Source of the DNA: Candidatus Omnitrophota bacterium
GTDB lineage: Bacteria > Ratteibacteria > UBA8468 > MWAK01
Reading direction: 5' to 3'
Assembly: GCA_043797665.1 (NCBI GenBank)
Contig: JAZDPL010000001.1
Location: 1-25,836 of the forward strand
Length of the DNA stretch: 25,836 nt
Numbering within the stretch: position 1 is the stretch's first letter; every line of letters begins with the position of its first letter. A program made the position numbers and the translations under genes. Under the pieces are notes generated by a model that worked only from the letters and a program-made list of their open reading frames with translations, ran no database searches and was not told where the DNA came from. Below are positions 1-25,745 of this stretch, piece after piece.

Positions 1-178
1 TTTCGGTCAGAACCTTCCCGCCCTGGCTGTCAGAGATAATTTCTACCGCGCCGGTCTGCTCGGAGATGACCGCCGAGAGGTTAGGACCGGTAAGCATTGC
101 GGCGGAAACGCCGGCGGAAAAAACAAAAGAGACGAAAACGGTAAATAATGTTCCCGGCATGATATTTCTCAATTTCAT
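1..178 (-). CDS. 5' part of a secreted protein (runs off the window edge); apparent paralog of the 1163-aa protein at 6185-9676
   Basis: Not in the ORF track. Hand translation from ATG at 178, preceded by SD-like AAGGGGG: MKLRNIMPGTLFTVFVSFVFSAGVSAAMLTGPNLSAVISEQTGAVEIISDSQGGKVLTE, open to the edge. Signal-peptide-like N-terminus; the mature start resembles ITLYGKEMTAVLSDTTGQVISISDAVGARVL of the 1163-aa protein. Confidence 0.8.
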   Translation of the reverse strand, partial: MKLRNIMPGTLFTVFVSFVFSAGVSAAMLTGPNLSAVISEQTGAVEIISDSQGGKVLTE

Positions 179-209
179 GGTACCCCCTTGACTGACAACA
201 GATTTGCGG

Positions 210-986
210 CTATTTAAGACCTTCGTAACGGACCGAAATAAAACGGATGGTAATCTCATCGGGACTCAGTGCCCGGTTGTAGATACGCAACTGGTCTATC
301 AACGTTTTTGAATCGTTCGCAACAAAATAACTCCCGCCGACGAATATTTCACCCTTATTCAATTCCTCCGGAGGCGGGGGGCATCCGAGCGGGACCTGAC
401 CGCCGGGTTGTCCGTCAATGTAAAGGGCTACTCCCTTATCCGACCAGGTTACCGCAACATAATGCCAGACGTCCGGCACCCAGTTCTTTCCCATGGGGAC
501 GGCCATGAAAGTATTCTTCGATTGCCCTTCAGTTCCCATAATGAAATAGATGGAAGCCGCTTCCGAGTGCTTATAGAGGATAAAACTCCACGGCCCTCCA
601 TAGATACGTATAAAGTGATGAAATGCATTGTCTTCCTTGTTCCAGTCCACCGGCTTGACCCACATCTCCATGGTACCTTCCCTGGCGTTGATGTTGCCGT
701 CAGCCTTATACCGGAACCAGTCGGCATGGCTTATGACCGCCGCCTGCCCGACCTTGCCCTCGACAAAAGCGGGCTTACCGACCAAAGTAACTTCGCTGCT
801 GCCTTTGGCGATTGCCGGAACGCCGCTCCCGTCAAACGGCAGGTAAAACAACACGTCTTTGTCTCCGGCCGCTTGGGATTCCTGGGCAAACAAATCCGGC
901 CGGAAGATGCCGGCCGCCGCACAAAAAAAGACCGCCACCGCAATAATTGAGAAAATTCTCCCGCCCAAATCATGTAACGCCTTCAT
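210..986 (-). CDS. Secreted LamG / concanavalin A-like jelly-roll domain protein
   Basis: 258 aa; hydrophobic signal region; LamG-like motifs LFYLPFDG, EGTMEMWVKP, WHYVAVTW, LYIDG, IDQLRIYNRALSPDEI; SD AAGGAGG upstream. Confidence 0.85.
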   Translation of the reverse strand: MKALHDLGGRIFSIIAVAVFFCAAAGIFRPDLFAQESQAAGDKDVLFYLPFDGSGVPAIAKGSSEVTLVGKPAFVEGKVGQAAVISHADWFRYKADGNINAREGTMEMWVKPVDWNKEDNAFHHFIRIYGGPWSFILYKHSEAASIYFIMGTEGQSKNTFMAVPMGKNWVPDVWHYVAVTWSDKGVALYIDGQPGGQVPLGCPPPPEELNKGEIFVGGSYFVANDSKTLIDQLRIYNRALSPDEITIRFISVRYEGLK

Positions 987-1033
987 GAGCCTCCTTTATA
1001 AAATACCCCTTTGCCGATTATCAAAATTCTCGC

Positions 1034-2143
1034 CTATCTCCCCTCGCAGATACGCCGTTTTGCCTCCAGGTAGTATAACCAGTTCCGGTAGGAAACGTCC
1101 GGCGGCGCAAGGTGGTCCAACTGGGGCAGGTAACCGCCGTCTTCAAGCAATTCCGGCAGTTTGGAAAGGAGTTCCCGGTCAATCTCTTCTTTTCCTTTTG
1201 TCAGGGCGCGCTTGTCTATGCCGCCCCAGAGGCGAAGGTCCCGGCCGTATTCCCGGCGCAGGGCCGCCGGGTGCATCTCCTCCTTGCATTGCTCCAGGGG
1301 ATAGAGACAGTTGATGCCGGATTGAATCAAGAGGGGGATGACCGCCCTGGGGTCGCCGTCGGTGTCAATGAAAATGACCTCCACGCCTTTTTTCTTCAGG
1401 AATTCGTTTGCCCGAAAATAACCCGGCAACAGGAATTCCTTGAAGATAGCCGGGGAGACAAGAGGACCGTTCTTGAAGGAAAAGTCCTCCCACCACATGA
1501 AGTAGTCGATCCGCACTTCACTCAGCGCCGGCTCCGTCAGTTCCAGGGTAAATTCAACGATAAACTCCACCATCTCGCGTGCCAGCGCCGGGTCGTCGTA
1601 GAAGATGGTGCAGGCGTTCTCCGTTCCCATCCAGGTGCGAATCATGGAATAGAGCCCGACGGAACCGAGGCCGGGCCCCCAGACGATGTCTTCTCCCTGC
1701 CGGATGGAAGCGACTATCTTCTTCCAGTCGGCCGGGTAGCGTTCCGGGTTTTTCGGGTCATAGCGGCTCTTGATGGCTTGGAAATCTTGCCGGGAGTTGA
1801 CCGGGAAGGAGATAAACTGGGGCATCGCGGAACTGTTTCTGAGGGATTTCACCACCGCGCCGTTTGTGTTCCTGATGGTAATGGTGCCCTGGTCTTCGGA
1901 AAGAACCTTCTCTTCAAAATGGGGCAGAATGCCCGGGTTAAGCCCGAGGCATATCTGCTTATCCAGGCGGAAATATTCATTCCCGTTGAAGGTGAGGGTT
2001 GTCTCGTCCAGCCCGATACCGGTCGGCATGCCTTCTTTCAGCCATTGGTCCCTGGTTTCCTTCCAGCAGCCCACTTCTATCAACGGTACCCGGTCAACCG
2101 GCTCAAAGCGCATCAGCCGGTTGAACCGTTCTTTGTTGGTCAT
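1034..2143 (-). CDS. Uroporphyrinogen decarboxylase (URO-D / MtaA-CmuA-like) superfamily protein, function unknown
   Basis: 369 aa; MTNKERF...DRVP start, WEDFSFKNGPLVSP, DTDG, GGIDK, GGYLPQLDHLAPPDV. Lacks the HemE RQAGR motif. Confidence 0.85.
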   Translation of the reverse strand: MTNKERFNRLMRFEPVDRVPLIEVGCWKETRDQWLKEGMPTGIGLDETTLTFNGNEYFRLDKQICLGLNPGILPHFEEKVLSEDQGTITIRNTNGAVVKSLRNSSAMPQFISFPVNSRQDFQAIKSRYDPKNPERYPADWKKIVASIRQGEDIVWGPGLGSVGLYSMIRTWMGTENACTIFYDDPALAREMVEFIVEFTLELTEPALSEVRIDYFMWWEDFSFKNGPLVSPAIFKEFLLPGYFRANEFLKKKGVEVIFIDTDGDPRAVIPLLIQSGINCLYPLEQCKEEMHPAALRREYGRDLRLWGGIDKRALTKGKEEIDRELLSKLPELLEDGGYLPQLDHLAPPDVSYRNWLYYLEAKRRICEGR

Positions 2144-2162
2144 TTAGGTAGCATAGACCGTG

Positions 2163-2882
2163 TTAATTCTGCTTGGTGTACTTAGTCCAATCCGCAAAGA
2201 AGTTACTCACGGAAAGCCACTGGGCGTGTCCGTCGGCAAAGACAAAGCAGAAACCATTGCTATGCCGTGCTGACATCCTGTTATACTTAAAAACCTCTGC
2301 TGTATGAAAAGAATCATTAACACCGTCTAAATCCTGGTCAACGGTTGGAGCGTAGTTATCAATCGCGTACCACCCGTAGGTATCGCCGATCATAACCGTG
2401 TCCGGCGTCATCCTGGTGAGTTTCTTTTGAGGGAAGCCATAAGCGGGAATGGTAAATGGACCGACATTGCCGCTCACGCCAACACCGCCTTCGAAGTCAC
2501 AAAGGGCTCCGTAGCATTGCCCTGGGGCTTGGGGTGCAGACGGACATTTCATCCAGTTGTAACCAAAAGTCAACTGAGCCGATGTCCCATAGCCCGGTGT
2601 GTTAAGGTATGGTCCGAGCTTCGCCATCCAGTAGTATGCTACGTTACTCGATTCGTCTGTCATGGGGGGTATGTAATCCTCGTTGTCGTTGCAGTACATT
2701 ATCAACGCCAGTCCCGCTTGCTTCAGGATACTGAGGCACCCGGCTTGTCTGGCTTTTGCCCTTGCCTGGCTTAGTGCCGGCAGGAGCATCGCCGCCAGGA
2801 TGGCGATGATGGCGATAACCACCAACAACTCAATCAACGTAAATCCCATTGCTTTCCTTACCGCTTTTTTTATCTTTGCCAT
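2163..2882 (-). CDS. Prepilin-type N-terminal cleavage/methylation protein with H-X9-DG C-terminus (DUF1559-like), copy 1
   Basis: 239 aa; basic leader then [39 protein letters not shown]-terminal [22 protein letters not shown] upstream. Confidence 0.92.
2785..2846. repeat. 62-bp segment identical to 5999-6060 (prepilin N-terminal helix coding region)
   Basis: Base-by-base comparison gives 62/62 with 5999-6060 and 55/62 with 25648-25709. Confidence 0.9.
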
Positions 2883-2903
2883 TTTATTTACCTCCGTACT
2901 TTA

Positions 2904-2953
2904 GTAGGGGTCGGATTTATCCGACCCGCGGGCTCGATGAATCGAGCCCCTAC
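2904..2953. repeat. GTAG-family REP-like double-hairpin element, copy 1
   Basis: GTAG-GGGTCGGAT-TT-ATCCGACCC-GC-GGGCTCGAT-GA-ATCGAGCCC-CTAC: two perfect 9-bp inverted repeats bracketed by GTAG/CTAC; intergenic; 46/50 identical to 12443-12492. Confidence 0.88.
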
Positions 2954-2963
2954 AATTTACCGC

Positions 2964-4010
2964 TCACTGTTTCATAGGCGCTCCTTTGGAGGATTCCCGT
3001 ATAATCAGATTCGGTTTAAGGAGTTTGGAAGTAACCTTCTCCCCTTTAATCATTTTGCGTAAGGTCTTTGCCAGTTCCTGGCCCAGCATGTAATCATTGG
3101 AATCCACGGAACTCAAGGAGGGCCTGGAGTACTCGGAGAATTCCTCGTTGCCCACGCTTATCACGGCTATGTCGTCCGGGACGCGCCGTCCGCAATCGCC
3201 TACCGCCCGCATGACGCCGAAACCGCACATATCGCAGTGCGCGAAAACCGCATCGCAGGTTCTTCTGCTCTTAAGAAACCTGGAGATGGCATTATATGAC
3301 CATTCAAAATAGGAAAATTCCGCGGGGTTGCAGTTAAAAACGAGTTTTTCATCAAAGGATATTCCTTCCTCTTTCAGCGCTTTTTTGTATCCGGCGAGCC
3401 GGAGTATCCCGATAGGATTGGAGTTAAACGTATTGGTTATGCAGGCAATCTTCCGGCGGCCTGTCTTGAGGAGATGGCTGGCGGCAAGGTACCCGGCCAT
3501 CCGGTCGTCGTGGCCGACAAAGGGACTGGTGATTTCCGGATGCAGGTTCACACCCATGCAGACAAGGCGAACCCCCCGTCGTTCCAGTTCGCCGACATAA
3601 TCTCTTATTTTTTTGCTCCAGTTCAACGTGGAAACGAGAATAGTGCCTTCAACCTTCTTGCCAAACATGAATTCCAGCGCTCTCTGCTCGCGGTCAGGGT
3701 CGTATTCAGTCGCATATACGACGATCCCGTAGTCCTCCTGTTCAAAATAGCGTTGAATACCCTGGAGCACGATTCCCTGCTTCCTGTCCAATGCGCTCGC
3801 CATAACAGCGCCGATTAATCCGGTCTTTCCGGAACGTAAACCGCGCGCCAGAAAATTGGGCCGGTAATTCAATTTCCGGACGATGTCCATAACCCGATTT
3901 TCGGTTGCGGGGCTGATCTTTATCTTCGCAGCCGTGCCGTTAATAATCCGGGAAACGGCCCCGGCGGAAACGCCGGCTTCCTTGGCTATTTTTTTCAGGG
4001 TGACATCCAT
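2964..4010 (-). CDS. LacI-family transcriptional regulator
   Basis: 348 aa; HTH VTLKKIAKEAGVSAGAVSRIIN, hinge LNYRPNFLARGLRSGKT, C-terminal RVPDDIAVIS...PSLSSV...LIIRESS. Confidence 0.95.
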   Translation of the reverse strand: MDVTLKKIAKEAGVSAGAVSRIINGTAAKIKISPATENRVMDIVRKLNYRPNFLARGLRSGKTGLIGAVMASALDRKQGIVLQGIQRYFEQEDYGIVVYATEYDPDREQRALEFMFGKKVEGTILVSTLNWSKKIRDYVGELERRGVRLVCMGVNLHPEITSPFVGHDDRMAGYLAASHLLKTGRRKIACITNTFNSNPIGILRLAGYKKALKEEGISFDEKLVFNCNPAEFSYFEWSYNAISRFLKSRRTCDAVFAHCDMCGFGVMRAVGDCGRRVPDDIAVISVGNEEFSEYSRPSLSSVDSNDYMLGQELAKTLRKMIKGEKVTSKLLKPNLIIRESSKGAPMKQ

Positions 4011-4028
4011 ATGGTTCTTCCCGGTAAG

Positions 4029-4042
4029 TATAACGTTTGAGT
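4029..4042. promoter_or_regulatory. Candidate LacI-type operator, copy 1
   Basis: tataacgtttgagt, 13/14 identical to 6099-6112; imperfect palindrome around a CG; lies between the predicted -10 and the lacI ATG. Confidence 0.6.
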
Positions 4043-4052
4043 ATCAGTTATA

Positions 4053-4081
4053 ATATTAGAACTTTTTCCAGGAATTGTCAA
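4053..4081 (-). promoter_or_regulatory. Sigma70-type promoter for the LacI gene
   Basis: Minus strand TTGACA (4081-4076), 17-nt spacer, TAATAT (4058-4053), in the 110-bp gap upstream of lacI. Confidence 0.78.
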
Positions 4082-4120
4082 GCCGTCAGGGTTCTTTCCT
4101 TTCGGGTTGCTTCTTTTCTC

Positions 4121-5338
4121 TTAACTTCTATCGTGCGGGCCTATCCAGACCTTGCCTTCTTCATCAAAACGCCAGCCCGGGGTCCTCACGGATAATTCGT
4201 TCTTCCCCCGATTCTCCTCCACCTGCCTGGTGGTCTCTTCCCAACTGCATATGCCGCTGACCGCATCCAGGACACGGACGTTCTGGGCTCCCACGGTGCA
4301 GGCATATTTCAAGCTCATCTCTATGGTCTTTCCTTTCAGATAGGCGGCCAGAAAACCGGCGATGGCGGAATCACCGGACCCGGTGGCGCTGGCTATTTCC
4401 GATACATGGTAACTCGGTTCCCAGAGTTCGCGTCCAGCCCAGTTGTCCAAATCCGGGAATCCGCCGGAACAAATCAGAGAAAGCTCTTCTCTAACGGCCG
4501 TCCTCACATAAAACCCTCTGTAACCGCATTTGATGCCGGCAATTCTTGCGCCCAACCCGAGCATCTTACCGGAAAGCCGCGTCAAATCTTCGCCCTCAAA
4601 CCGGCTCAGGAGATCTTTGCCTTCCGCGGACTTCAACTTCCGGAGGAATTCCTCCTTCTCCAGCATATACAACATCTCTTCAGCACTCGGGAAGAAGATA
4701 TCCACGTAAGGAAGCACCTTCTCCAAGACGGTACGCCAGTCAACCTTCCCGGAAGGGCTGTCCGGGTCGGGCAGGGAAACATCCAGTGATGTAACAACGC
4801 CCAGTTCCCTGGCCTTTTTATAAATCCTCGCCAGCTGGTCTCCGTCGTTTTCATACAAACGGCGCATCAAAGGCGGGTAACCCAGATGAAAGATTTTGGC
4901 TTTTCCCACGATGTCGAAATTTATGTCTTCATACCCGAATGTGTTATTGGCGCCGGGGTTGTGGAGAAAGACGCGGTCTATCCCCGGAGGAGCAACCACG
5001 ATGGTATAAGAAGTATTCTCTCCCCGGGCGATTCTCATGCCTTCGGCCGCTGCATGGTCGCTCAGTTTTTCAAGAACAATCCTGCCGAAATCGTCGTCGC
5101 CCACTTTTCCCATGAATTCCACCCTGGCTCCCAGCCGGTGGAGAGCCAGGCCGGTGTTAGAGACAGGGCCTCCCGTGGAAATGGCCGCCTCTTCCACATT
5201 GACCAGTTTTCCCGGTTTGAAAAGCTCCTCGATGCGCTTCCCTCCGCTGCCGGGAAATTTAGGAATAATATCCAGGCAGATATGACCGGCCGCCGCTACA
5301 TCACTATCTCTTTCCGCCACGAGTTTCTCCTTACTCAT
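4121..5338 (-). CDS. PfkB / ribokinase-family carbohydrate kinase
   Basis: 405 aa; AGHICLDI, GGPVSNTGLALHRLG, GKVGDDDFG, C-terminal anion-hole motif ATGSGDSAIAGF. Confidence 0.92.
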   Translation of the reverse strand: MSKEKLVAERDSDVAAAGHICLDIIPKFPGSGGKRIEELFKPGKLVNVEEAAISTGGPVSNTGLALHRLGARVEFMGKVGDDDFGRIVLEKLSDHAAAEGMRIARGENTSYTIVVAPPGIDRVFLHNPGANNTFGYEDINFDIVGKAKIFHLGYPPLMRRLYENDGDQLARIYKKARELGVVTSLDVSLPDPDSPSGKVDWRTVLEKVLPYVDIFFPSAEEMLYMLEKEEFLRKLKSAEGKDLLSRFEGEDLTRLSGKMLGLGARIAGIKCGYRGFYVRTAVREELSLICSGGFPDLDNWAGRELWEPSYHVSEIASATGSGDSAIAGFLAAYLKGKTIEMSLKYACTVGAQNVRVLDAVSGICSWEETTRQVEENRGKNELSVRTPGWRFDEEGKVWIGPHDRS

Positions 5339-5418: not shown

Positions 5419-6072
5419 TCAGTACGTCGTGTACTTGGCCCAGTTTGGGAAAAGTTCGGCTTTACCGAGCCGTTCCGCGTGGCCGTCGGCAAAGACAAAA
5501 CAGAAGCCGTCGCTGTGCCGGGGTTCCATGTAGTTGTATTTGTAGCCGGCACTGGAATTGACGGAATCATTGATACCGTCACCATCCTGGTCAGCCCCCA
5601 ACACATAGGTTAAGATTGCATAACCGTGCGAGTCGCCTATCAGGATGGTATAGGATTTCAGGTTTCCCAGTTTTATCAGGGGGAAAGTATCCGCGACAAG
5701 CGGGCCGGCACCGGAACCCTCGCTGAACAGCGCGCCGTAGGACTGGCCGTTACCCTTGGGCGCGGAGGGACATTTCATCCAGTTGTAACCGACGTATTTC
5801 CCGGACGGAGCCGAAATGTACCCCCTGATAGCGTACATCCAGTAATCGTTTAGAGAACCCCCGGCGCCGTAATACATAGCCGGCAGGTAGTCCTCGTTGT
5901 CGTTGCAGTACATTATCATCGCCAGTCCGGCCTGTTTTAAGTTGGCAAGGCAGTTTGCCTGCCTGGCCTTTGCCCTTGCCTGGGAAAGAGCCGGCAAAAG
6001 CATCGCCGCCAGGATGGCGATGATGGCGATAACCACCAACAACTCAATCAACGTAAATCCGCGTTTCTTCAT
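5419..6072 (-). CDS. Prepilin-type N-terminal cleavage/methylation protein with H-X9-DG C-terminus (DUF1559-like), copy 2
   Basis: 217 aa; [62 protein letters not shown]. Confidence 0.92.
5999..6060. repeat. 62-bp segment identical to 2785-2846
   Basis: Direct comparison, 62/62 identical including third codon positions. Confidence 0.9.
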
Positions 6073-6098
6073 TAGGCAACTCCTTTCACATAACTACA

Positions 6099-6112
6099 TA
6101 TATCGTTTGAGT
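6099..6112. promoter_or_regulatory. Candidate LacI-type operator, copy 2
   Basis: tatatcgtttgagt, 13/14 identical to 4029-4042; lies between the predicted -10 and the SD of prepilin copy 2. Confidence 0.6.
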
Positions 6113-6184: not shown

Positions 6185-9100
6185 TTACTTTACTTCCCCG
6201 GAAAAGACCATGTCGCCGAATCCGGCCGGGTCGTTCCAGGCGCCGTTGGTCCAGACCGACGCCTCCCCGGTGATGTCGGCGCGCATGAAGGTAACACCCC
6301 AGATGTCACCCGGCTTTGGTTTCTTGCCAAAGTTATTGAAAGGCAGTTTCATCTCGCACATCCAGCCGACGTTGTAGTTGAGCCCGGTTTTAACCTCATA
6401 TTCTCCGTTCCACTTCATGTCCCATCCGGTTTCGGAGTTCTTGATGTCCGCGACCGTGCCGGCAGTGTCAATTCCGATTTCATAATAGTTGGTCATGTCC
6501 CGGTAAGGGTCAATAAAGATATGGCAGTGGTCGGAAAGCCAGACCTTGGCTTCCGGCACTTTTGCGTCTTCAAGATTTATGATGGGCTCCAGATTGTCAA
6601 AGAGCATGTACAGGTTGTCATCATCATAGCACAACCTGACCAGCGCCTTGGAACCGGCAAGCGCATCCTTGCCGTACAGGAAGAAATCGGTCGCCACCTC
6701 GCAGTTCTTCCAGCAGGCGTCGTTTCCGTATCCGTCAATAACCGGCGGAGTTTTGGTGCGGCAGACGGTCAGTTTGCGCTTAAGTTCTTTTATTTTGACT
6801 ATGTCTCCCTCTCTGGCAGACAGCAGATGTATGTCGGCGATATTCATCTCTTTACCCCCGGCCGGATAGAAAATAAGACCCATATAGGTAGTTGCATCCC
6901 ATTTCTTCACCGTAGTGGACGGGGTCATCTGGTCTTTGTAGACGTTGAACTCTTTCCATCCGGCAAAAGCATCTTTGATTTCATAGGTCCAATTGTCCCC
7001 GGCAGCCAGACGAACTATCGCCTTGCCTCCGCTCTTTTCACCTTTCACCTTGATGCTGAAGCCGCCGGCTTCTTCCTTCTGCGTCATATAGGCATCTATC
7101 GAACCGCCGCCCGGGCTTATCTCTTTAAGCGCCAGACAGCTCTTGCCGTCTTCCTGGTAGGCGCGGTGGTCAAGGTTGTGGTAGAAGAGCCGGTGGCTGG
7201 TTTCAGTCCAGTAATCGGAACCGGGGTTTGCGTAGGCGGCTTTGGGAAGTTCTGCAAAATTGGGTTTTGCATCGGAAATCCGGACGGCTGACTTACCCTT
7301 GGTGAGGTCAAGAAGAATGAACTTGTTGTTTAAGATTTCTGTCAGCGCGACTTTGGCTTGCCTGCCGTTTATCTCTGTCTTAACCCCTTTCCAGTCCTGG
7401 GGGACATAAGCAAGGACCTGGGCGGTGTTATTGCTGTTCTGAACCGAGAGGTTATAAAAAGGAGCGTCTGCCGGTAAGAAGCCGGTTATCTTTACTCCTT
7501 TATTTTCAGGCAGAAGGAAAGAGGTACGTTCTCCGTTGAAGGTATAAACCCAGCCCGGTACCTGGGTGATAGTGTGATAGTAATTGTGCAGGGGCTCCAT
7601 CTCCATGGTGTGGGTATACTTCGCCGGCGGGTTCTTGACAACGCCAAAACTGATGGTTCGGAGGTAGTCCACCTTCCAGGGAATCGGCTTGAATACATCC
7701 ACCATTTCGGTTGAGGAGAGCAGAGAATCAAAGGTAAAGAGGTAATTGCCCTTTTTGTACTTCAGGTCTGCGGTATTCAGGGAAATTTTCTGGTCACCGC
7801 CTGTGTCTCCGTGCAAGAGGGCGGGGATTACCAGTGCCTCGCCCTTGTCCATCGGTTCAATCTCCAGTTTGTCGGTCTGAAGTTTCCACCAGGAAGGATA
7901 GACAGAGACATCGCTGGCTGTCATCTCCAGCATTTCGTCTATCACCTTCTCGTGGGCCAAACTGTGGGAAACGTCCCGCCACCAGTTGGTTGCGTTCCTG
8001 ATCCAGCCCCGCATCCCGGTCTGGCCATTTCTGATGCCGTAGATTCCCCTGGTTCCGTAGCAGAGGTTAACCCAGACACCGGGCCGGTTAGTGCGGTACA
8101 GGATACCCAGGGAACCCGGGACTGCCAGCGTTCTCCAATCCTTTTTCTCCCAGCGGTCCGGCTGCTGGCACTCCATGTAACTGCCGTGCGACCACAAGGC
8201 ATCAGTCCCGGAGACGTTCTGAATGATTGCCGCATCGTTCTTTTCAAATATCTTCCCCAGTTCATCGTAAAATTTTGCGTTCTCATAACTCTGGACTACG
8301 TTCTTTGTCTTCCAGTTAATACCCTCGGACACACCCGAATCGATGTGTATCCAGTCAAAACCCAGGTCGGTTATGTAATGGCTCAACTGGTTCAGAAGGT
8401 ACTCGCGATAGCCGCTGGAGAAATCCGGGACCCCGCCCAGTCCGGTGCCGTCTCCGCCGAACTGTATCTTTCCTTCCTGGTCATAGAGCATCCAGTCCTT
8501 GTGGTCATCGTAGGGAGGAGTACCGGCGGTGGGAGTGAAAGTAGCGTATCCGCCTACCTTTATCCGGGGAGAAATGGCTTTGAGCATCCTGATGTTTTCC
8601 TTGAGTTCTTCAATCGGGACCGGCTGGCTGTACCCGGTATCGGTGTAGGTGTAATATCGAAAGGTCCCCTGATAGGGGAAATCTCCCTGCACCGTCCAGT
8701 GATTGAAGAAGACCAGCAGGTATTCGTCGTCTTTGAGGAGTTTCATGAAATCGGCCACATCTTTGAGTACGCCATCCCGGTTTTTCATGAGACCTACCAT
8801 CCCGGCTCCCGGGTCGCTGATAAACATCCGGCCCTTCGGAAACCAGGTGGATACTTTGCGGCCGCGGTAATCGGAATAGGGCGGCTGACTGTAGATAAAC
8901 CGATGGTAGTCAAACGGGTCACCGCCAATCAGGGCGTACCGGGTTTCCAGGTTCAGTCCGGTCTGGTCGTTGATGAAGCCCAGGCCGATGGCGGTGATGG
9001 CGCCGCCGGGGACGAGTTTCGATTCCACGGAGGGATGGGCGTCACAATAGAAATAGCGCCCATTGACTTTATACCGGTAATGGGTGAAGACCCGGTCGCT

Positions 9101-12433: not shown

Positions 12434-12442
12434 GTTCAAATC

Positions 12443-12492
12443 GTAGGGGTCGGATTCATCCGACCCGCGGGCGCGATAAATCGCGCCCCTAC
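12443..12492. repeat. GTAG-family REP-like double-hairpin element, copy 2
   Basis: GTAG-GGGTCGGAT-TC-ATCCGACCC-GC-GGGCGCGAT-AA-ATCGCGCCC-CTAC; immediately downstream of the mutarotase stop; 46/50 identical to 2904-2953. Confidence 0.88.
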
Positions 12493-12493
12493 G

Positions 12494-12811
12494 TTATTCC
12501 AGGTAGAAAATATGCTCCAGCCATTCCGGTCCGCCTTTTTCAAGGTCGCCGGAACCGGATTCAAAGTATGGCGCCATAAACTCCTGCCATTTCCGGTTGA
12601 TTTCGGTTTCGCCGAGTTTTCGCAGGGATTCTTCCGGGTCTTCGGATTCGAAATAACCGACGAGCAGACCGTCCGGACGCAGGAACATGGAATAATTCCT
12701 GATTCCCGTCTCGCGGATTGCCTGCCGCATTTCCGGCCATACACGGTGGTTCTTCTTGTACTCTTCCACCATCCCTTTCTTAAGCCGCAACAAAAAACAG
12801 ACTCGTTTCAT
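12494..12811 (-). CDS. rhaM: L-rhamnose mutarotase family protein
   Basis: 105 aa; RVCFLLRLK, EEYKKNHRVWPEM, GIRNYSMF, LVGYFE, KWQEFM, LEHIFYLE; SD AAGGAG. Confidence 0.88.
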   Translation of the reverse strand: MKRVCFLLRLKKGMVEEYKKNHRVWPEMRQAIRETGIRNYSMFLRPDGLLVGYFESEDPEESLRKLGETEINRKWQEFMAPYFESGSGDLEKGGPEWLEHIFYLE

Positions 12812-17100: not shown

Positions 17101-17122
17101 TTTAAGCCTTTTTACTCTTTTT

Positions 17123-18250: not shown

Positions 18251-18275
18251 ATACCTCCGTTGAAAATAATAGATG

Positions 18276-20630
18276 TCAAAAATCGGCACACGGCCGGATT
18301 TCTACCAGGACAACAGAAAGCGGCTGCATACTGAGCCGTTCACGGCGCGGAAGAGATGTGGATTTCAACCAGGATTCAGGCACGCCGTCGGTGATTCGGT
18401 TCACGTTAAAAGATTCAGATGGTGTTTCGTATCCGGACAGTTCGACCTCGAACGCTACCGGCTCCTCGGAGATATTGACGAAGATATACCCGATACGGCC
18501 GTCCCGGCCACGGAATGCGGCGTGCTGAACCGCATAATCCTGTACCTCATGGCGCTGCTGCGGGTCCGCATGGTGGGCTGAGCCGTCATAGAAAAACTTG
18601 CAGTATTGAGCCGTGACCATCGGCACGTCAATCCGGGGAGGCCGGAGCATTTCCCCGAACATAACGTAGGGCCAGCACTCGGCAGCGGCCGCCCGTATGA
18701 GCTTCCGGTAGAAACCGATGGTAATCGGATTGTGGTCGGCCGGCTCCTTGAAATACCGTCCGCCGGTCGGCACCACCCCCTGGGTAAGCGCTTTGCCAAG
18801 ACTGCGGGTCCAATACAACACTTCCGGCCGGTTGGATTCCACATAGGCAGCGCAATACGAACCGATGTATTCGTTATAAACATAATTGAACAGCGGAATG
18901 GTCTCCCCTCCCATGGGCATACCGCGGGAGTAATGACCAAAATACTCCATGTTGCCTGCTCGGTGGTCGTACATATCAAGATAGGGAATGAAGTTCTCCG
19001 AGATACCCTCGGTGGTGATGGCACAGTCCGCATTCCGTGCCTTACCCTGCCGGCGAACCTCTGCCAGAATGCGTCCCCATGCTTCCGACCACCACGAGCC
19101 GTGCCCGATGGGATGACCGTGAGCCGGGTCGTAACAGGTTTTACTGCCGCAACAGGGGAAGTTGTCAATCTGAACAACGGTGCAGCCGAGGTCAAGACAT
19201 CGGACGAAAATTTCCGCGGTCAGGTTTTGCGTGTACGCCGTGTGGGGGCACAGCCAGGAAACTTCCCATCCCTTAGACCATGATTGAATGACCGGGTTGC
19301 CGGCCGGTTCCTTGATGGCGTGGGGATGTGCTTCGGCGTTGAACCGGTCCCAACTGTCAAAGACCGGTTCGTGCGGGCTTTTGACATACCAGCACCCGCC
19401 GGTGATATACACGAAACCGTAATTTCCTGCCTTTCGCAGGCGCGCCATAGCTTCATGGAAAACCTCCTCTCCTTCCCGCGGAGGAAAGAATCCGGCCGGA
19501 CCGGTCCAGGCACCGCCGCCTTCCCAGTTAAAGACCAGTGCCAGCAAAGGCACGCCGGCTTCCTCAGAGAGTTTGTTCACAACCTCCGCAATCTGCTTTA
19601 TGGTATGGTTAATCTTCAGGACCGGTATATCATAGTTGGACATCTGAAATACGCCGAATCCGGTTCGCATCCAATTGGCGATGTCCCGGTCCCAGAGTTT
19701 CTTTTCGCACCACCACTGCTGGGTTGCCCAGGACTTGTAGATGTCCGCGGCCTCGTACCAATCGCCGTGGAATACCTCCAGGATGTTGTCATAACCGATT
19801 TCAACGTCGGCACCGGACTTTTCCCCGGGGAAATGCGACACCGACATAATCGGATAAGGACCAAGGTGGTCCCAGGGCTCCATGCTAAATCTCTTCACGT
19901 TCTGGCCGGCATCGTGGGTCGCAAGATACAATCCGGCCAGGTCGTTGTAGAATGCATACATCTGCATGGGCAGGCTGCCCGGATAAAGGCCACTGACCCG
20001 GCCGAGACCCACATCCGCTGTTTCCGGACCGGGTCCGCTGCAGAGCGGCAGACGGTCCTTCACCGGGAAAGGATTTTTGAACAGGTAACCTTCGCCTTGA
20101 TAAGGGACAGATAGGGCTTCCCCCGGCGCGGGGTCACCCACCTTCGACAAACCGGAGATGACCGGACACGTCAACTGGTAAAGAGCGGCATCAGCCGGGA
20201 TGCCGGTCACTGCCATGTGCCAAACGCTACGAAGGGAGTCCGGGGCTAACGAGATTTTTACCGAGACTTTGAGACCGGGGATGGAAAGGCCGGAAGAGGC
20301 AAGGGTCAGCGTAACCGTTCCCTCAGTCTCATCCTGCGTCCATTCCAGCCGGCTGGCTTCTCCGCTGTCGTGCCATTCCAGATTTTGTTCCGGCGAACGG
20401 CGCACCGCTAATCGCCAGAGCAGTGCCGGAGCCTCAGCGTCGCGGCGGAGCTGGCAGCCGGTAGCTTTGTCCAGAATTGAGGTCAACGCGCCGTTCCGGG
20501 TCTGACTGAAACCGAGTTCAAGGCAGGCGTTTCCCAGAACGATATGGTTGCCCTCAGTGCGGACGTAAACCGATGATTGGGCCGGTGTGCATCCAGACAT
20601 AATATTCTCTTCAGAACGTTCCTTTCTCAC
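18276..20630 (-). CDS. DUF6259-like putative glycoside hydrolase, no signal peptide
   Basis: 784 aa; YPGSLPMQMYAFY, GLYLATHD, FHGDWYEAADIYKSWA, VVQIDNF, CYDPAHGHPIG, ITTEG, IPLFNYVYNEY, GEMLRPP. Start may be ATG 20600. Confidence 0.72.
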   Translation of the reverse strand: MRKERSEENIMSGCTPAQSSVYVRTEGNHIVLGNACLELGFSQTRNGALTSILDKATGCQLRRDAEAPALLWRLAVRRSPEQNLEWHDSGEASRLEWTQDETEGTVTLTLASSGLSIPGLKVSVKISLAPDSLRSVWHMAVTGIPADAALYQLTCPVISGLSKVGDPAPGEALSVPYQGEGYLFKNPFPVKDRLPLCSGPGPETADVGLGRVSGLYPGSLPMQMYAFYNDLAGLYLATHDAGQNVKRFSMEPWDHLGPYPIMSVSHFPGEKSGADVEIGYDNILEVFHGDWYEAADIYKSWATQQWWCEKKLWDRDIANWMRTGFGVFQMSNYDIPVLKINHTIKQIAEVVNKLSEEAGVPLLALVFNWEGGGAWTGPAGFFPPREGEEVFHEAMARLRKAGNYGFVYITGGCWYVKSPHEPVFDSWDRFNAEAHPHAIKEPAGNPVIQSWSKGWEVSWLCPHTAYTQNLTAEIFVRCLDLGCTVVQIDNFPCCGSKTCYDPAHGHPIGHGSWWSEAWGRILAEVRRQGKARNADCAITTEGISENFIPYLDMYDHRAGNMEYFGHYSRGMPMGGETIPLFNYVYNEYIGSYCAAYVESNRPEVLYWTRSLGKALTQGVVPTGGRYFKEPADHNPITIGFYRKLIRAAAAECWPYVMFGEMLRPPRIDVPMVTAQYCKFFYDGSAHHADPQQRHEVQDYAVQHAAFRGRDGRIGYIFVNISEEPVAFEVELSGYETPSESFNVNRITDGVPESWLKSTSLPRRERLSMQPLSVVLVEIRPCADF

Positions 20631-20849
20631 CGCCTAATAATCTTCCGCAATTACTATATAGGGGTTGGCAAACGCTACATCGGGCGGTATGCTGTGGTCA
20701 AGCCCGGGTACGTAACCGCCCTCCTGAACCAGAGGCCGGATACGTCTCAGTTCTGCGTCTATGGCCGGGGGCCCCTGAGCCATAACGCGTTTGTCTATGC
20801 CAAACCACATCCGTAAGTTCCGGCCGTACTTGCGCCGGACCTCCAGTAC
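20621..20849 (-). pseudogene. 5'-truncated, frameshifted remnant of a subtype A URO-D gene (homologous to 16015-16251)
   Basis: About 166/180 nt identical to 16067-16246 in the core by hand count; net 8-nt loss near the 3' end shifts the frame (ANPYIVIAEDY versus ANYCYYMEQLWKIIRW); only the last ~75 codons remain. Confidence 0.88.
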
Positions 20850-20877
20850 CATCACCCAGTCTTGATGATTTTAAATA

Positions 20878-21747
20878 TTATTCCCACCTTCTTCGTGGAC
20901 TAAAACCAACAACCTCTTGCATCTTAGAACAGTCAAAAAATGAAGCGTAAGGCTCTTTCTCGTAAATATAAGGTTTACGGATAATGACATCTTGTCCATA
21001 GCGTTCGTAGATAATATCTAGTGTTGGTTTACTAAAATAAGTTGTTGGACCACATACCAGGAAAATTTCATATTCAACTTCATCATGAAGAGCAAATGCA
21101 GCCACAGCTTCACAAAAATCATCCACCGATAGATATGGGCTAAAAAGAAGACGTGGATCTTGTTCCGCACGACCTTGTTGAATCAATGGCATAACAGTCT
21201 GTTTAAAACCTTCCAAACCACGGTCTGTCATCACCCACTGATACCGCAGAACAATAAACTTAATACCATATTGTCTGTTGAAACCTTTCGCCATAATCTC
21301 ACCGAATAGTTTACTATAACTATAAGCTTCATTTGGCGTGCACGGATGTTCTTCATCAATCGGAAAATATTTTGGTATAGGCTTATATCCTTTTGGCATA
21401 TGTCCAAACCCCATGGCAGATTCACTGGAACAATGTATAACACGACCTACACCAGCAGACGCTACGGCATTGAAAACATTGAAAGTCATTAATGTATTTT
21501 CTGACAATACCCGTTGGTCTCCTACATTCCGAGCAGTTGGCCAATTCGCAAGATGTACTACAAGATCATGACCTTTCATTATCTCTGGCAAATTTGTTGG
21601 TTCAAGCAAATTTGCTATCTTGCTACAAACACCTGGTTCTTGGCACTCTTGAATGTCTATGCTAGTGACATAATGACCATTTTGTACCAAATGCCGGCAT
21701 AAATGATGACCAATATTTCCTGCTCCACCAGTAACGATAATCCGCAT
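20878..21747 (-). CDS. NAD(P)-dependent epimerase/dehydratase (extended SDR) family oxidoreductase
   Basis: 289 aa; IIVTGGAGNIG, VVHLA, CSSESAMG, PIDEEHP, YSYSK catalytic YxxxK; SD GAGG. Confidence 0.92.
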   Translation of the reverse strand: MRIIVTGGAGNIGHHLCRHLVQNGHYVTSIDIQECQEPGVCSKIANLLEPTNLPEIMKGHDLVVHLANWPTARNVGDQRVLSENTLMTFNVFNAVASAGVGRVIHCSSESAMGFGHMPKGYKPIPKYFPIDEEHPCTPNEAYSYSKLFGEIMAKGFNRQYGIKFIVLRYQWVMTDRGLEGFKQTVMPLIQQGRAEQDPRLLFSPYLSVDDFCEAVAAFALHDEVEYEIFLVCGPTTYFSKPTLDIIYERYGQDVIIRKPYIYEKEPYASFFDCSKMQEVVGFSPRRRWE

Positions 21748-21764
21748 AATTTAACCTCGTTATC

Positions 21765-22490
21765 CTATGGAATCACTGGAGTCAGGGATTCATCCTTCGT
21801 CTTTTCTTCCTGATGATAATTAGTTTTAATCTCTTCGGCGGATAAAGCACGGTTATAGATCTTCGTCTCACCGATAAAACCGCTGAACCATCTCTGAGTT
21901 CCGTTCTCCGACCCAAAATAAAGGTTTGGGGTAACGACCCCCCCTATGCCACCCTCAAGCCACTCCTGGGAGAAAGTCCGCTCACCATTAAAATAGGCCG
22001 TAATCTCCTCATTCTCGATGCTATACACTAACGCTATATAACTCCACTTATCTACAGGAACTCTTGAAGGGGGGTATACCCAAAACCAATCGTCATTCCT
22101 CGCCGTTCTGTTTTCACTCCTTACGTAATTCTCCTCCAGAATTAACGTCCATACATACTTGGAGACAATCATGCCGCCATGAAATACCCGAGGTACCTTT
22201 ACCCAGGTAGTAATTGTCAGTGGGCCATCAATCTGAAGACTGGTACTATTCCCGCAATTTACATAGTCATCTTTGTGGTCAAATAGAAGAGCACAAGCAG
22301 TCTTCCCCTTAACCCAGGTTGCACCGTATATCTTACCGTCGTTACCGTTTCCGCTACTATCATGCAGAATTTCACCAGAGCCTTCATCAAACTTCCACCA
22401 GCCGGCAAGTCCTTCTTCGGCTTTAGTAGAAAGAGCAAAACAAAATACAAAAAACATTACCCCGACACCCAATACATATTTTTTAACCAT
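21765..22490 (-). CDS. Secreted LamG / concanavalin A-like jelly-roll domain protein
   Basis: Start moved to ATG 22490 (SD AAGGAGG; MVKKYVLGVGVMFFVFCFALSTKA signal peptide); LAGWWKFDEGSG, DSSGNGNDG, LTITTWVK, WSYIALVY, KIYNRALSAEEI. Confidence 0.87.
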   Translation of the reverse strand: MVKKYVLGVGVMFFVFCFALSTKAEEGLAGWWKFDEGSGEILHDSSGNGNDGKIYGATWVKGKTACALLFDHKDDYVNCGNSTSLQIDGPLTITTWVKVPRVFHGGMIVSKYVWTLILEENYVRSENRTARNDDWFWVYPPSRVPVDKWSYIALVYSIENEEITAYFNGERTFSQEWLEGGIGGVVTPNLYFGSENGTQRWFSGFIGETKIYNRALSAEEIKTNYHQEEKTKDESLTPVIP

Positions 22491-22492
22491 AC

Positions 22493-24985
22493 CTATTCCT
22501 CCTTTACCCATATTATCTTAAATTTCCCGAGGTCCTGTTCAAATTCAAATCCTCCATCACTCATATTTATAGGCTTATTACTCTCCCGGCTGTCTATTCT
22601 AATTACTCCATCATAGGTATTGTTGTCACAAAACTCCAGTTTATCGTAGGCAGACAGTTTTCCTTTAAGTTTAAGATTTTGCAAATTGAGTTGAATTTTA
22701 ACTTTGGTGTTTCCCGTACCTAAATTAGCGACCACGGCAAGGACTCCGTTTTTAGGATGTCGGTATAAACTAACATATACATCCGTACTCCCGGAATTGA
22801 CAGTAACATACTCTTTGTTTTTCCAGTAAGGGAGCCACTCCGCCTGCTTGCGACCAAATTCATCCATTATCTTCCATGCTGCTTGCAAGTACATCCGAGA
22901 AGGTGGTAAATCGTGAAGGAGGGATATAGCAAGACCGTGGGTTGACTGCTTATCCCATGAGAACAAGCAATCGTGTAAGAACTCAGCCGGCACACCAAAC
23001 TGATGCCCCATAAATTCAGAGCGAAAGACGTCTAATGGCATCTTCTCTAAAATCGGGGCGTTTTCAGAAATTCCCAACATTTTACCCCTATCACCAAGAT
23101 GCTCACCGTCCCAATAACTTGTAGCCCAGCTCATAATAGGGGTCAACATATTAAGGGAATTATGCAAATTTATCTGGCCATCAGGCTTACGTTTTATAAC
23201 TATGGCATACATACGCTGCATTATCTGGCGGCAGGCAAATATAGAGTTAGTTCTCTCAACCCTACCACTCAACCCTATATATCCGCAGCCATGTAAAATA
23301 TTTTTGCAATAACCGTTGGGGTGAAACACCGAAGGTAGACCATCTAAGTAAACACCATCTACGCCATACTCATCCATCATTGTTTTAGCAAGGCCATCTG
23401 CCAGGCGGTCCTGCCAAACGCTCTTCCAGCAAATATTGAGACACCTCTGGCTTGCCATAGGAGGGCTATTAAGGAAAGCTTCGTATACAATCGCAGGCAT
23501 CGCAGGGCATTCTTCCTTGAATAGGGGCCATTCTGGTTCTAAATCTGACAACGAGGCAGCAAGATAGAGGAGAACCTGACTCCCACGTTCATGGCAATCT
23601 TTAACCAGTTTCTTCAGTTCTTCTACATAGGGGGTTGAAGTGCTACCGAAGGCATCCGTCCATTGTTCGTGAAGGGCGAAAGTCTTAAAGCCGTAATCAA
23701 GAACTGATTTTGGAACATTGAAGCGGTCACCGCTGCCACGCGTCATGCCTGTGCCAAAACGACCCTGGTTCAGGTGTGCGAACCGATAGTCCCAAACATC
23801 CTTTATAACCGGCTTAACCGGTGTAGCTTGAAGACCAAAGGTATAACTTAGTTCAACAACTTCATCTTTAGGCTGCATGATGGGTATCCCCAAGGGATGA
23901 GTTATTCTATTCCCTGGTTTTAGGTGGATTGGTTTGTCCACTAAATGTAATCGGAGCTTCACTACATCCCTTTGTGGCAAAACTTCTATATTGCGAGTTA
24001 CCTTAATGTTATACCAATCCTTCTCTGATTCACAAAACCACTCCAGCCCCCGCTCCTCATCACCTAACCATATCATAGGTACAAATGATGTGACCCAGAT
24101 ATCCTTAGGGGTAAAGCCTACCCTACCCTCAAAGCCGGGTGTATAGATGTATTTTGCATACTCGGCAAGAAGTGGTATCTCAAGGGTTAATTCTTCTAAC
24201 TTTAAAACTCGCTTTGGTGTAACTTTGCAGTCTATTCTGATCATTCCATCGTATTCAATCTGCACTTCTCCTGACAGACTTAACCCTCCGGATAATGCCT
24301 CCCGGGTAAAGGAAATGATACCCGGGGTCTGTTTTTTTATCTTAGGAGAATTCCACTCAAAAGACACAACCTTACCATCAACTTTTGCTATAATGTCTAT
24401 TGGTCCGGCAAGAATAGAACTTCCTCTGGTTTCAATTTTTGCCGGAAACAGGCTATTATCGCTAAAATGGTATGCCCTGCCCCATACCTTAACTGTCAAA
24501 TCTCTGCCTTTTTGCTCAATTTCAACCGGTGTCCACGGAGGAAGCACTTCTTCAGTTATTCCTTCTTTTGAATTCAACCAAGTAAATTTTTCTAATTCTT
24601 TTGGCCACCAGGTAAACTCTTTCACAGACTCTTCACCCAACTGGAAGCCACCGGAATCTTTGGCAATTGCCTTGAGGCGGTAGATGCCCGCAGGTGAGTC
24701 CTGCATAGTAAAGGCGGCCATAAATTGCCTGGGCTTAGATAAAGGTATCGGCTTAAGTTCCTGATGCTCAATTACTTTAGATGTACCCGAACTGATCAGG
24801 GTTAATTCTATCTCACCTACCGCATCAGAATCTATACCTGACTTCTTAAAATCAAAATCCACTACTATCTTTCTCTGGCCATATAGTGGGTGCAATATCA
24901 TAAAATCACTTTCAGCTTTTACATCTCTGATTAAACCAAATGCAAAAAGCCCGACTAAGACATACAATATAGTCTCCTTAACCAT
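22493..24985 (-). CDS. Secreted DUF6067-like putative glycoside hydrolase
   Basis: Start moved to ATG 24985 (SD GGAGG); signal peptide ending VKA; VLPPWTPV, VWGRAYHF, IEYDGMIR, WLGDEERGLEWFCES, FGLQATPVKP, YGVDGVYLDG, SYWDGEH. Confidence 0.75.
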   Translation of the reverse strand: MVKETILYVLVGLFAFGLIRDVKAESDFMILHPLYGQRKIVVDFDFKKSGIDSDAVGEIELTLISSGTSKVIEHQELKPIPLSKPRQFMAAFTMQDSPAGIYRLKAIAKDSGGFQLGEESVKEFTWWPKELEKFTWLNSKEGITEEVLPPWTPVEIEQKGRDLTVKVWGRAYHFSDNSLFPAKIETRGSSILAGPIDIIAKVDGKVVSFEWNSPKIKKQTPGIISFTREALSGGLSLSGEVQIEYDGMIRIDCKVTPKRVLKLEELTLEIPLLAEYAKYIYTPGFEGRVGFTPKDIWVTSFVPMIWLGDEERGLEWFCESEKDWYNIKVTRNIEVLPQRDVVKLRLHLVDKPIHLKPGNRITHPLGIPIMQPKDEVVELSYTFGLQATPVKPVIKDVWDYRFAHLNQGRFGTGMTRGSGDRFNVPKSVLDYGFKTFALHEQWTDAFGSTSTPYVEELKKLVKDCHERGSQVLLYLAASLSDLEPEWPLFKEECPAMPAIVYEAFLNSPPMASQRCLNICWKSVWQDRLADGLAKTMMDEYGVDGVYLDGLPSVFHPNGYCKNILHGCGYIGLSGRVERTNSIFACRQIMQRMYAIVIKRKPDGQINLHNSLNMLTPIMSWATSYWDGEHLGDRGKMLGISENAPILEKMPLDVFRSEFMGHQFGVPAEFLHDCLFSWDKQSTHGLAISLLHDLPPSRMYLQAAWKIMDEFGRKQAEWLPYWKNKEYVTVNSGSTDVYVSLYRHPKNGVLAVVANLGTGNTKVKIQLNLQNLKLKGKLSAYDKLEFCDNNTYDGVIRIDSRESNKPINMSDGGFEFEQDLGKFKIIWVKEE

Positions 24986-25028
24986 GGTAATCACCTCCGT
25001 TTAAAATAAGGATTAAAAAATATACCCC

Positions 25029-25745
25029 TTAATAGTTCGCTCGGTTGTCGGGGATAAAGGTAATGTAATCTGGAGGACCTGAGTTCAAGGATAGGCCATA
25101 CTGCCCTAAATTCGCATACCATTGCACATGTCCGTCAGCAAAGAGAAGATTTGCTCCGTTTGAATGCTCTCTAGCCCCCAGCACACCGTTACCGTTAAAA
25201 TTTTCGAACCACGCATAGCCCTCTGCCAACACATTTATATTGTTATACCAGTCTCCATCGACACGTCGAGTATTGGGACAAAGAACAATAACTTGAGCAG
25301 GGTTCATAATATTTCCTATCTTAATTGGGAGACAGGTCCCGACGGGTAAACGAAAAACGTCGGTCCAGAGATTGGTGTTATATGCGTAACTAACAATACC
25401 ACCATAGCTGGGGCTGGTAAGGGGTCTGCGGTCATTTGGGCATACAAAAACCTTCTTATTGTTAATGTATGGTAAGAGTAGTCTGGCATAAGTTGGCTTT
25501 GCATCGTAGGAGGTAAAGTCCGTATCCGTTGGAAATATGTCATCATTATCCTGACAATACATATAAAACGCCAGGCCTATCTGTTTTAAATTACTGGTAC
25601 ACTGCGCCTTCCGGGCTTTTTCTCGCGCCTGACTCAACGCCGGCAGCAGCATCGCCGCCAGAAGGGCGATGATGGCGATGACCACTAACAGCTCAATCAA
25701 CGTGAACCCATGTCGGGGAGGGCGTGATAAAATCTTGTTACACAT
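25029..25745 (-). CDS. Prepilin-type N-terminal cleavage/methylation protein with H-X9-DG C-terminus (DUF1559-like), copy 3
   Basis: 238 aa; [83 protein letters not shown]. Confidence 0.92.

Follow-up and report, generated by a model that had tools for sequence, protein, structure and literature searches.

How might a bacterium forage on glycans from loci in which no transporter can be recognized? The question is raised by a 25,836-nucleotide stretch from a Candidatus Omnitrophota bacterium (contig JAZDPL010000001.1 of assembly GCA_043797665.1; hereafter the window), which is contig C87 in full, one of 93 contigs in a 2.69 Mb assembly of 86% completeness, and which carries three genes for H-X9-DG prepilins among sugar-related genes. 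A model that had read the window without database searches (the sequence-only reading) saw here a single system resembling a polysaccharide utilization locus (PUL), with the pilins in the position that SusD or ATP-binding cassette (ABC) solute-binding proteins (SBPs) hold elsewhere. We found this interpretation partly supported, and more strongly at the scale of the genome than in the window: throughout the genome, pilins of this type lie next to LacI-type regulators and glycan genes far more often than random genes do. We judge it about an even chance that they would serve as substrate-specific minor pilins, capturing glycans for import through a shared secretin.

The three window genes are indeed of the H-X9-DG/DUF1559 type, as claimed. 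Each product carries the G|FTLIE cleavage site with N_methyl and TIGR02532 matches over cut-off, and each shows the basic leader, G|F site, E5 and hydrophobic tract of about 21 residues that mark type IV prepilins. Matches to PF07596 (SBP_bac_10/DUF1559) reach 32.9-47.4 bits against a cut-off of 23.3 and cover the N-terminal part of the profile only, while a literal H-X9-DG lies close to the C-terminus in all three copies. The TIGR04294 profile (cut-off 19) is passed by copies 1 and 3 at 21.1 and 25.1 bits, with no listed match for copy 2 at E<=0.01. A pilin from contig C35 groups with copies 1 and 2 in one clade (support 0.996), to which copy 3 does not belong; the C35 locus also carries paralogs of the window LamG protein and of the window carbohydrate-binding module (CBM) 9 protein, the latter 50% identical and directly upstream of the pilin paralogous to copy 2. 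A motif scan of the assembly returned 73 prepilin-like frames, of which 59 were full-length family members, and a sixtieth member was found later as a LacI-pilin open reading frame (ORF). Family pilins have about 200-270 residues and match only the first 55-65 of the 268 PF07596 positions.

The evidence that carries our argument is the gene context of these pilins, assessed on 2494 genes called with a codon-based script, with signal peptides and membrane helices assigned by a crude hydropathy rule whose labels are approximate. For 16 of the 59 pilins the gene immediately upstream is of LacI type and co-oriented, where 2000 random draws gave a mean of 0.4 and never more than 4; two further pilins are single regulator-pilin ORFs. 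A LacI-family gene occurs within two genes upstream of 25 of the 59 (random mean 1.6) and within two genes downstream of only one; seen from the regulators, 23 of 35 LacI genes have a pilin no more than three genes downstream. The next gene encodes a glycoside hydrolase (GH), CBM, LamG or GH-like DUF domain at 35 of 58 pilins, whereas for genes drawn at random the count was 8 of 126 (Fisher p=6e-15); the 35 combine 34 of 53 scanned together with five cases known otherwise, one of them positive, a contig-edge gene being unscanned, and the random set holds the 126 annotated (114 + 12) of 130 drawn, with 4 dropped at contig edges and 9 positives if DUF5107 counts. In a set of 70 glycan-protein homologs that had not been picked as neighbors, taken to avoid circularity, 34 lay within three genes of a pilin, compared with 150 of 1079 background genes. 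Proximity by the same measure was highest in DUF4838 (11/12), stand-alone LamG (10/15) and GH123_N proteins (6/6 members of the paralog family), against a background of 13.6%, and only 11 of 50 URO-D-like genes were this close. The enrichment that the sequence-only reading had named as a check was thus borne out. The promoter that it placed ahead of copy 2 is not typical of the family. Copy 2 does follow a sigma70-like promoter (11/12, at 6166-6137), and an operator beside it is plausible, inferred from a recurring 14-bp motif, but as a general rule the pilin is the gene after the regulator: a sigma70-like site precedes 25 of 35 LacI genes and only 9 of 59 pilins (background 12.5%), so that in general pilins do not head their own operons.

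The association extends beyond this genome. TIGR04294 matches occur in 41 of 41 genomes of the class and in none of 14 controls, and five relatives hold 28, 34, 46, 57 and 63 full-length copies. At the 30 best-scoring loci of five other genomes, a LacI or GntR-LacI gene stood directly upstream at 11 (21 upstream frames scanned) and glycan domains appeared in 7 of 21 downstream fragments, with the caveat that these fragments ended at about 480 aa, the genomes are kin and the loci were not drawn at random. A Sedimentisphaeraceae record (L010) repeats the LacI-pilin-LamG order. In a genome of the same family (G004), which has nine SBP_bac_8 matches, a single co-oriented run (L303) comprises GH116, a URO-D-like gene, LacI, a pilin and a sugar SBP.

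Among the 19 window proteins scanned against domain profiles there was no transporter or pilus-assembly protein, in agreement with the sequence-only reading, and likewise no susC/susD pair and no PilM. The genome encodes one prepilin peptidase (PilD), five PilC/GspF proteins, four secretins, seven PilB/GspE-like proteins and four PilT/PilU-family ATPases over cut-off, together with PilM, GspK and a pair of GspG proteins, and the GspD profile is matched over cut-off; refutation by missing machinery therefore fails. At least four separate clusters for type IV filaments or type II secretion systems (T2SSs) are found on C21, C22, C68 and C75 of the 2.7 Mb genome, and several minor-pilin cassettes on C30, C52 and C7. 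Recognizable importers are few. LptF/G genes indicate an outer membrane, and no TonB-dependent receptor was matched in the assembly; across the class, 10 of 41 genomes have such matches, in 1-3 copies, 8 of them over cut-off. Of 108 multi-pass proteins (five or more predicted helices), the 104 scanned include one SSF and three MFS proteins, two ABC permease pairs, two Opp-type permeases and three DUF6785/DUF6784 proteins. None belonged to a PTS or TRAP family and no sugar ABC permease was found among them; the ABC pairs are PstC/PstA, from one member tested per pair. Nine had no match, of which a rescan identified one as OPT-like and left five blank. Pilin loci as such are not poorer in membrane proteins than chance (11 of 59 against 11.7 at random), an idea that we rejected.

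Three pilin runs include a candidate inner-membrane carrier, with some labels derived from paralog families or sequence inspection: regulator-pilin-F5/8 protein-DUF6785-oxidoreductase on C72, CBM9-pilin-GH42-GH2-DUF6785 on C79, and regulator-pilin-DUF4838-SSF-URO-D on C37. These runs speak against the view that pilins stand in for inner-membrane carriers, and their replacement of ABC binding proteins was rejected on the evidence of L303, where LacI, pilin and sugar SBP share one run. A pilin beside inner-membrane systems is placed at the surface or outer-membrane step, and it is for that step, if at all, that the analogy with SusC/SusD survives. As an ABC sugar SBP of this genome, its sole SBP_bac_8 match was rejected, having no predicted signal peptide and no ABC neighbors. 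On C30 (L130:13554-14774) an orphan sugar-SBP-like protein, with no predicted signal peptide, lies among dehydrogenase genes. In several relatives the one SBP_bac_8 match per genome adjoins an ATPase and an 11-TM permease, a system that we take to be of the Fe/thiamine ABC type, and at L305:212-1666 an SBP_bac_8-type domain is fused to GntR.

One of these candidates is DUF6785. Its three genes (L212:5188-7146, L197:1-1941 and L229:10405-12333, on C72, C63 and C79), which also match DUF6784, lie in pilin runs in two of three cases, and the family is present in 39 of 41 related genomes and none of 14 controls. A structural model (pLDDT 79) matched barley YS1 over its full length (template modeling scores 0.65/0.70, E=5e-8 and 1e-7; next match E=0.02). 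A search of PDB sequences with the DUF6785 alignment gave no match, and comparison of its profile with the OPT-like C63_14 was weak (probability 26%). DUF6785 is accordingly predicted to have the fold of OPT/YSL transporters and is a candidate inner-membrane importer, for which gene context would imply a role with sugars. On C63 (L196:11579-17968, L197:1-1941) a run of DUF6785, a 1456-aa protein with Peptidase_M28 and FtsX, and the OPT-like protein lies a short way upstream of a pilin whose surroundings are not glycan-related.

The pilins themselves combine a constant stalk with a variable head. Median identity among paralogs is 79% over the first 56 residues and 23% over the heads, and Trp and Tyr together make up 11.4% of head residues compared with 5.4% in 348 other predicted secreted proteins, a pattern that suits a family of binders mounted on one machine. 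The heads of copies 1 and 2 also contain a DxDxDG motif, which presumably may bind calcium. Close homologs of the copy 2 head number only two outside the window; the best matches of copy 2 are sequences from an uncultured bacterium, Ca. Omnitrophota, Verrucomicrobia and Planctomycetota. A model of copy 2 (pLDDT 80) consists of a helix of about 50 residues (3-53) and a globular head, and in a wide fold search its first 17 rows were pilins or pseudopilins, a weak but consistent result led by PilA4 (Z 5.5; root-mean-square deviation 3.8 over 119 aligned residues), EpsG (5.3) and ComP (5.1). Copy 2 is accordingly predicted to adopt a type IV pilin fold; no SBP or SusD-like fold was among the matches listed.

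Longer homologs show what else has been joined to this pilin. Among the best 120 of 1217, 23 have a LacI/GntR regulator and 12 a glycan enzyme ahead of the pilin in one ORF. We considered, and rejected, hydrolases displayed on pili by fusion: the pilin is C-terminal in 12 of 12 such matches, which fits a polyprotein or a lost stop codon and does not fit display. Regulator-pilin ORFs are found among long homologs P0015-P0097 and in the genome itself at C8:31840-33750 and C65:29409-31298; here the prepilin peptidase could free the regulator, or stop codons could have been lost. Twenty long homologs carry a C-terminal extension with a profile match to PstS (alignment A4, E=2e-5), from which it follows that pilins bearing a solute-binding domain exist; P0049, P0062, P0072, P0098, P0109 and others are of this kind, three of them named Armatimonadota. 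Of the sequencing runs considered for expression, four shared 5-6% of words, and the contigs of two cover mainly the conserved pilin N-terminus and are otherwise patchy.

The observed layout, enrichment, conservation, machinery genes and scarcity of importers, together with the predicted folds, lead us to favor glycan capture for import, in which processing, binding and retraction are steps that we infer. The sugar of a locus would relieve repression by LacI/GntR and so switch on the matching pilin, which PilD would cleave and PilB/PilC would assemble into a type IV filament, one among several. The aromatic-rich head of the pilin would then bind the glycan of that locus on a shared, retractable pilus or pseudopilus, and PilT-driven retraction would draw the glycan through a secretin to periplasmic hydrolases, much as competence pili are held to do with DNA. 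A small set of shared carriers, for which DUF6785 and the one SSF symporter are candidates, would move the products into the cytoplasm. The pilins would thereby do the job of SusC/SusD in Bacteroidota. A bolder version, that some 60 inducible and interchangeable pilin tips with hypervariable aromatic heads, a retractable filament, a secretin and OPT-fold DUF6785 carriers make up a third general design for glycan foraging next to SusC/SusD and ABC loci, is one that we put forward tentatively and consider less likely than not.

Several observations weigh against glycan import by these pilins. At 86% completeness the absences are soft, and one TonB receptor each is present in two relatives of the same genus or family and also in a third; small oligosaccharides could moreover enter without a pilus through general porins, which lie outside the searches made. 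Peptides and metal chelates are the known substrates of OPT/YSL carriers, which are not known to take sugars. No known lectin fold was recognized in the head, since Foldseek gave no match to the copy 2 model at E<=0.001 and none was listed in the wide fold search, where the best Z was 5.5. In 32 of 58 pilins the residue before the cleavage site is A, S or N instead of G. Gly or Ala is the rule described for this position in the accessible part of PMC9934059, so that the 15 pilins with S or N may go unprocessed. Four of 60 pilins stand in non-glycan contexts, and at the Planctomycetales loci picked the pilin is followed by small genes (about 140-170 aa) lacking glycan domains, which means that the family is not tied to sugars everywhere. 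Similar heads do have similar neighbors (Mantel p=0.0015), a signal that rests on three pairs and follows from co-duplication. A predicted secreted neighbor occurs at 53 of 60 pilins by our crude predictor, a layout that pilins acting only in adhesion or as export helpers would equally give; gene context separates the import, adhesion and export readings poorly.

The rival that survives best, which we consider unlikely yet far from negligible, is adhesion or enzyme display with no import, the pilins acting as induced adhesins or as docks that hold LamG, CBM or hydrolase proteins on insoluble glycan while the small sugars released enter through porins. The proximity of stand-alone LamG genes to pilins, given above, and a pilin-LamG fusion in another genome (P0092) are what it would lead one to expect. 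It also has precedents: glycan-binding minor pilins serve adhesion in S. sanguinis (PMC9934059), pili help Fimbriiglobus to adhere to chitin (as cited in PMC11131199, from which, as from PMC9934059, partial text was available), and the MUL2 locus of Akkermansia is described as a mediator of attachment (PMC13174399). It leaves unexplained why TonB receptors are rare or not found across a class with high pilin numbers. Furthermore, pilins also occur at loci with only signal-less hydrolases (3 of 60), and a lipobox in only one of 60 predicted secreted neighbors implies little lipid anchoring at the surface.

Less probable still is an export adaptor, in which a substrate-specific pseudopilin lets a shared T2SS recognize and export the large enzymes of the neighboring genes. 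The authors of the Verruconatronum study suggest T2SS export of alginate lyases (PMC13274419, accessible in part), and the present genome has the GspD, GspG and GspK genes listed above. The next gene is co-oriented at 57 of 59 pilins and its product predicted secreted at 33 of 59 (random mean 8.0), and EpsG is the second-best fold match of copy 2. Against this, glycan homologs near pilins show no preference for secreted over signal-less enzymes (18 of 34 and 16 of 36, p=0.63, a test blurred by shared loci), so that such a preference was rejected, and the pilin part of long homologs frequently follows a protein of cytoplasmic type. Known T2SSs also export many substrates with one pseudopilin set. 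Very improbable, lastly, is a pilin that takes no part in transport and spreads as a cassette with mobile sugar modules or signals with the adjoining regulator; LacI detects its sugars inside the cell and has no need of a sensor at the surface. A mosaic window with a GC step and a junction scar, the 23 regulator-pilin ORFs among the best 120 long homologs and the even spread of such genes over the Tuwongella genome (PMC8567305, partial text) would suit it, whereas the directional position of regulator upstream and enzyme downstream, repeated in other families and in the Sedimentisphaeraceae record, and the C76_12/C79_4 pilin pair, which retains its partner genes although their order is rearranged, speak against it.

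How far is a role in glycan capture foreshadowed by known systems? Published work already covers the family, its growth in paralog number and a single case induced by alginate. DUF1559/SBP_bac_10 (PF07596) and H-X9-DG (TIGR04294) proteins of Planctomycetes-Verrucomicrobia-Chlamydiae (PVC) bacteria have the same N_methyl segment, DUF1559 N-terminal part and H-X9-DG tail, and show a large expansion of paralogs as here, with 91 in Tuwongella (PMC8567305) and 68 in Planctopirus (PMC10632474). They are among the largest PVC paralog families, and the accessible parts of three papers describe family and expansion with no function assigned (PMC8567305, PMC10632474, PMC4807772); one NCBI record among the homologs is named 'DUF1559 family PulG-like putative transporter'. 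The pilins described here differ in being shorter and in being set between sugar regulators and glycan enzymes. Verruconatronum alginivorum has 67 PulG-like pseudopilin paralogs; one belongs to a cluster that is induced by alginate and also encodes lyases and an SSF symporter, and a pseudopilin is among the over-expressed proteins (PMC13274419). That bacterium differs in having a TonB system, its authors read the T2SS as an enzyme exporter, and the accessible parts of the paper draw no genome-wide link between pilins and glycan loci; the likeness, as PulG-like, is by description (PMC13274419). Akkermansia MUL2 is similar in tying a type IV-like pilus to glycan use, namely of mucin, in a PVC bacterium, and Akkermansiaceae use one conserved locus for glycan attachment (PMC13174399). 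It is a single four-gene locus (PilM and MUL2A included) with an archaeal-like pilin, whereas the pilins here are variable, number about 60 and are scattered over the genome at roughly one for each sugar locus, and the window contains no PilM or assembly gene.

As in Bacteroidota PULs, a locus brings together a regulator, hydrolases and a protein proposed to give specificity at the surface, at times along with an inner-membrane carrier, and the arrangement is repeated for many glycans; regulator and glycan enzymes are co-located here as they are in PULs. They differ in that no TonB receptor and no SusD-like fold were found; the pilin is the proposed specificity protein, and the loci would rely on a common pore with genes at another site. 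The locus would work like a PUL and is not a member of that class, which is defined by susC/susD. ABC SBPs come with a cognate permease and ATPase; the window has neither, and the genome's permeases are the PstC/PstA pairs and two Opp-type genes. ComP in DNA uptake offers a mechanistic parallel, being a non-core minor pilin that binds a polymer and one of the best fold matches of copy 2, while PilC of S. sanguinis is a glycan-binding lectin pilin with a grafted lectin module used for adhesion (PMC9934059, partial text); both are single-copy, unlike the pilins here. In the literature searched, which left subscription journals mostly uncovered and excluded supplements, we found no report of glycan import by pilus retraction or of the regulator-pilin-enzyme layout as a genome-wide rule, and the accessible text of a Kiritimatiellia synteny preprint (10.64898/2026.10.06.756941) contains no occurrence of pili, pilin or pilus. 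Some Planctomycetota import polysaccharide 'via an unknown mechanism', in the words of the part available of PMC11131199. The layout lets neighbors predict the ligand class of each pilin. If capture for import is correct, the pilin would mark glycan loci and new enzymes where susC/susD searches fail, and DUF6785 would gain a fold and a candidate role; were the third design to hold, DUF1559/H-X9-DG proteins would gain a function, and selfish polysaccharide uptake in PVC-type bacteria without TonB receptors a mechanism.

The minus strand carries all 19 of the window genes scanned and two fragments of genes as well (Table 1). Domain matches agree with the sequence-only reading in the order of genes after each pilin and in the sugar-related CBM9, apiosidase-like, DUF6259 and RhaM proteins. 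Of the large secreted protein placed after copy 1, the predicted secreted start stands, its size being beyond the stub in view. One PUL-like system over the whole window did not hold up: a GC content of 0.41-0.45 in the 20.9-25.7 kb block, against 0.49-0.58 elsewhere, and a truncated URO-D copy at 20.6-20.9 kb rule out a single 25.8 kb system. The window patches at least two modules together, and because it is a whole contig, copy 3 comes first for the simple reason that the contig ends there. The middle of the window consists largely of the five URO-D-like genes and an ADP-ribosylglycohydrolase-like gene.

Table 1. Features of the window, from the distal to the proximal end of the contig
Position	Strand	Feature	Remarks
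25029..25745	-	H-X9-DG prepilin copy 3, 238 aa	Leads low-GC module; head outside copy 1/2 clade
22493..24994	-	GH123_N-domain protein, predicted secreted, ~830 aa	DUF6067 in the sequence-only reading
21765..22511	-	Stand-alone LamG/ConA-like domain protein, predicted secreted	
20878..21747	-	NAD-dependent epimerase/dehydratase (short-chain dehydrogenase/reductase, SDR)	Closes low-GC module
20634..20852	-	Truncated duplicate of URO-D-like 3' end	Source gene 16021-17130; module junction
18276..20630	-	DUF6259 glycoside-hydrolase-like protein	Signal-less
17123..18289	-	URO-D/MtaA-like protein	DxDG and DH motifs
16021..17130	-	URO-D/MtaA-like protein	
13955..16027	-	ADP-ribosylglycohydrolase-like protein, 690 aa	Two matched stretches
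12825..13943	-	URO-D/MtaA-like protein	
12494..12811	-	RhaM-family mutarotase	
10764..12392	-	DUF5060 and apiosidase-like hydrolase	Signal-less; DUF4038 in the sequence-only reading
9694..10767	-	URO-D/MtaA-like protein	
6185..9676	-	CBM9 (C-terminal) protein, predicted secreted, 1163 aa	
6137..6166	-	Sigma70-like promoter TTGACA-18-TATACT, 11/12	Before copy 2
6099..6112	-	Putative LacI-type operator, 14 bp	Common to lacI upstream region
5419..6072	-	H-X9-DG prepilin copy 2, 217 aa	Predicted type IV pilin fold; DxDxDG in head
4121..5338	-	PfkB-family carbohydrate kinase	
4052..4081	-	Sigma70-like promoter	Ahead of lacI
4029..4042	-	Putative operator, second copy	
2964..4010	-	LacI-family regulator	
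2163..2882	-	H-X9-DG prepilin copy 1, 239 aa	Head 45% identical to copy 2, same clade
1034..2143	-	URO-D/MtaA-like protein	
210..986	-	Stand-alone LamG protein, predicted secreted	58% identical paralog in C35 pilin locus
1..178	-	Start of predicted secreted protein	59-aa stub ended by contig edge

The 14-bp motif ahead of copy 2 has two matches against a chance mean of 0.20, a number reached by 2 of 100 shuffles; its recurrence behind the lacI promoter makes an operator plausible, and it is probably that of the window LacI. In the gap between lacI and copy 1 (2883-2963) lie two adjoining 20-bp hairpins, and hairpin-like sequence resembling repetitive extragenic palindromic (REP) elements seems to be repeated between other genes (for example near 12436-12490). 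The five window URO-D/MtaA-like genes belong to 50 genomic paralogs; all five products have DxDG, at the place where 21 of the 50 have HxCG, and methyl transfer from sugars is one idea for their role, a CdhD gene being present in the genome. ADP-ribosylglycohydrolase-like genes occur within sugar loci both in the window (13955-16027) and in a relative, where one lies directly upstream of a pilin (L275:2193-3629), which suggests a glycosidase-like role.

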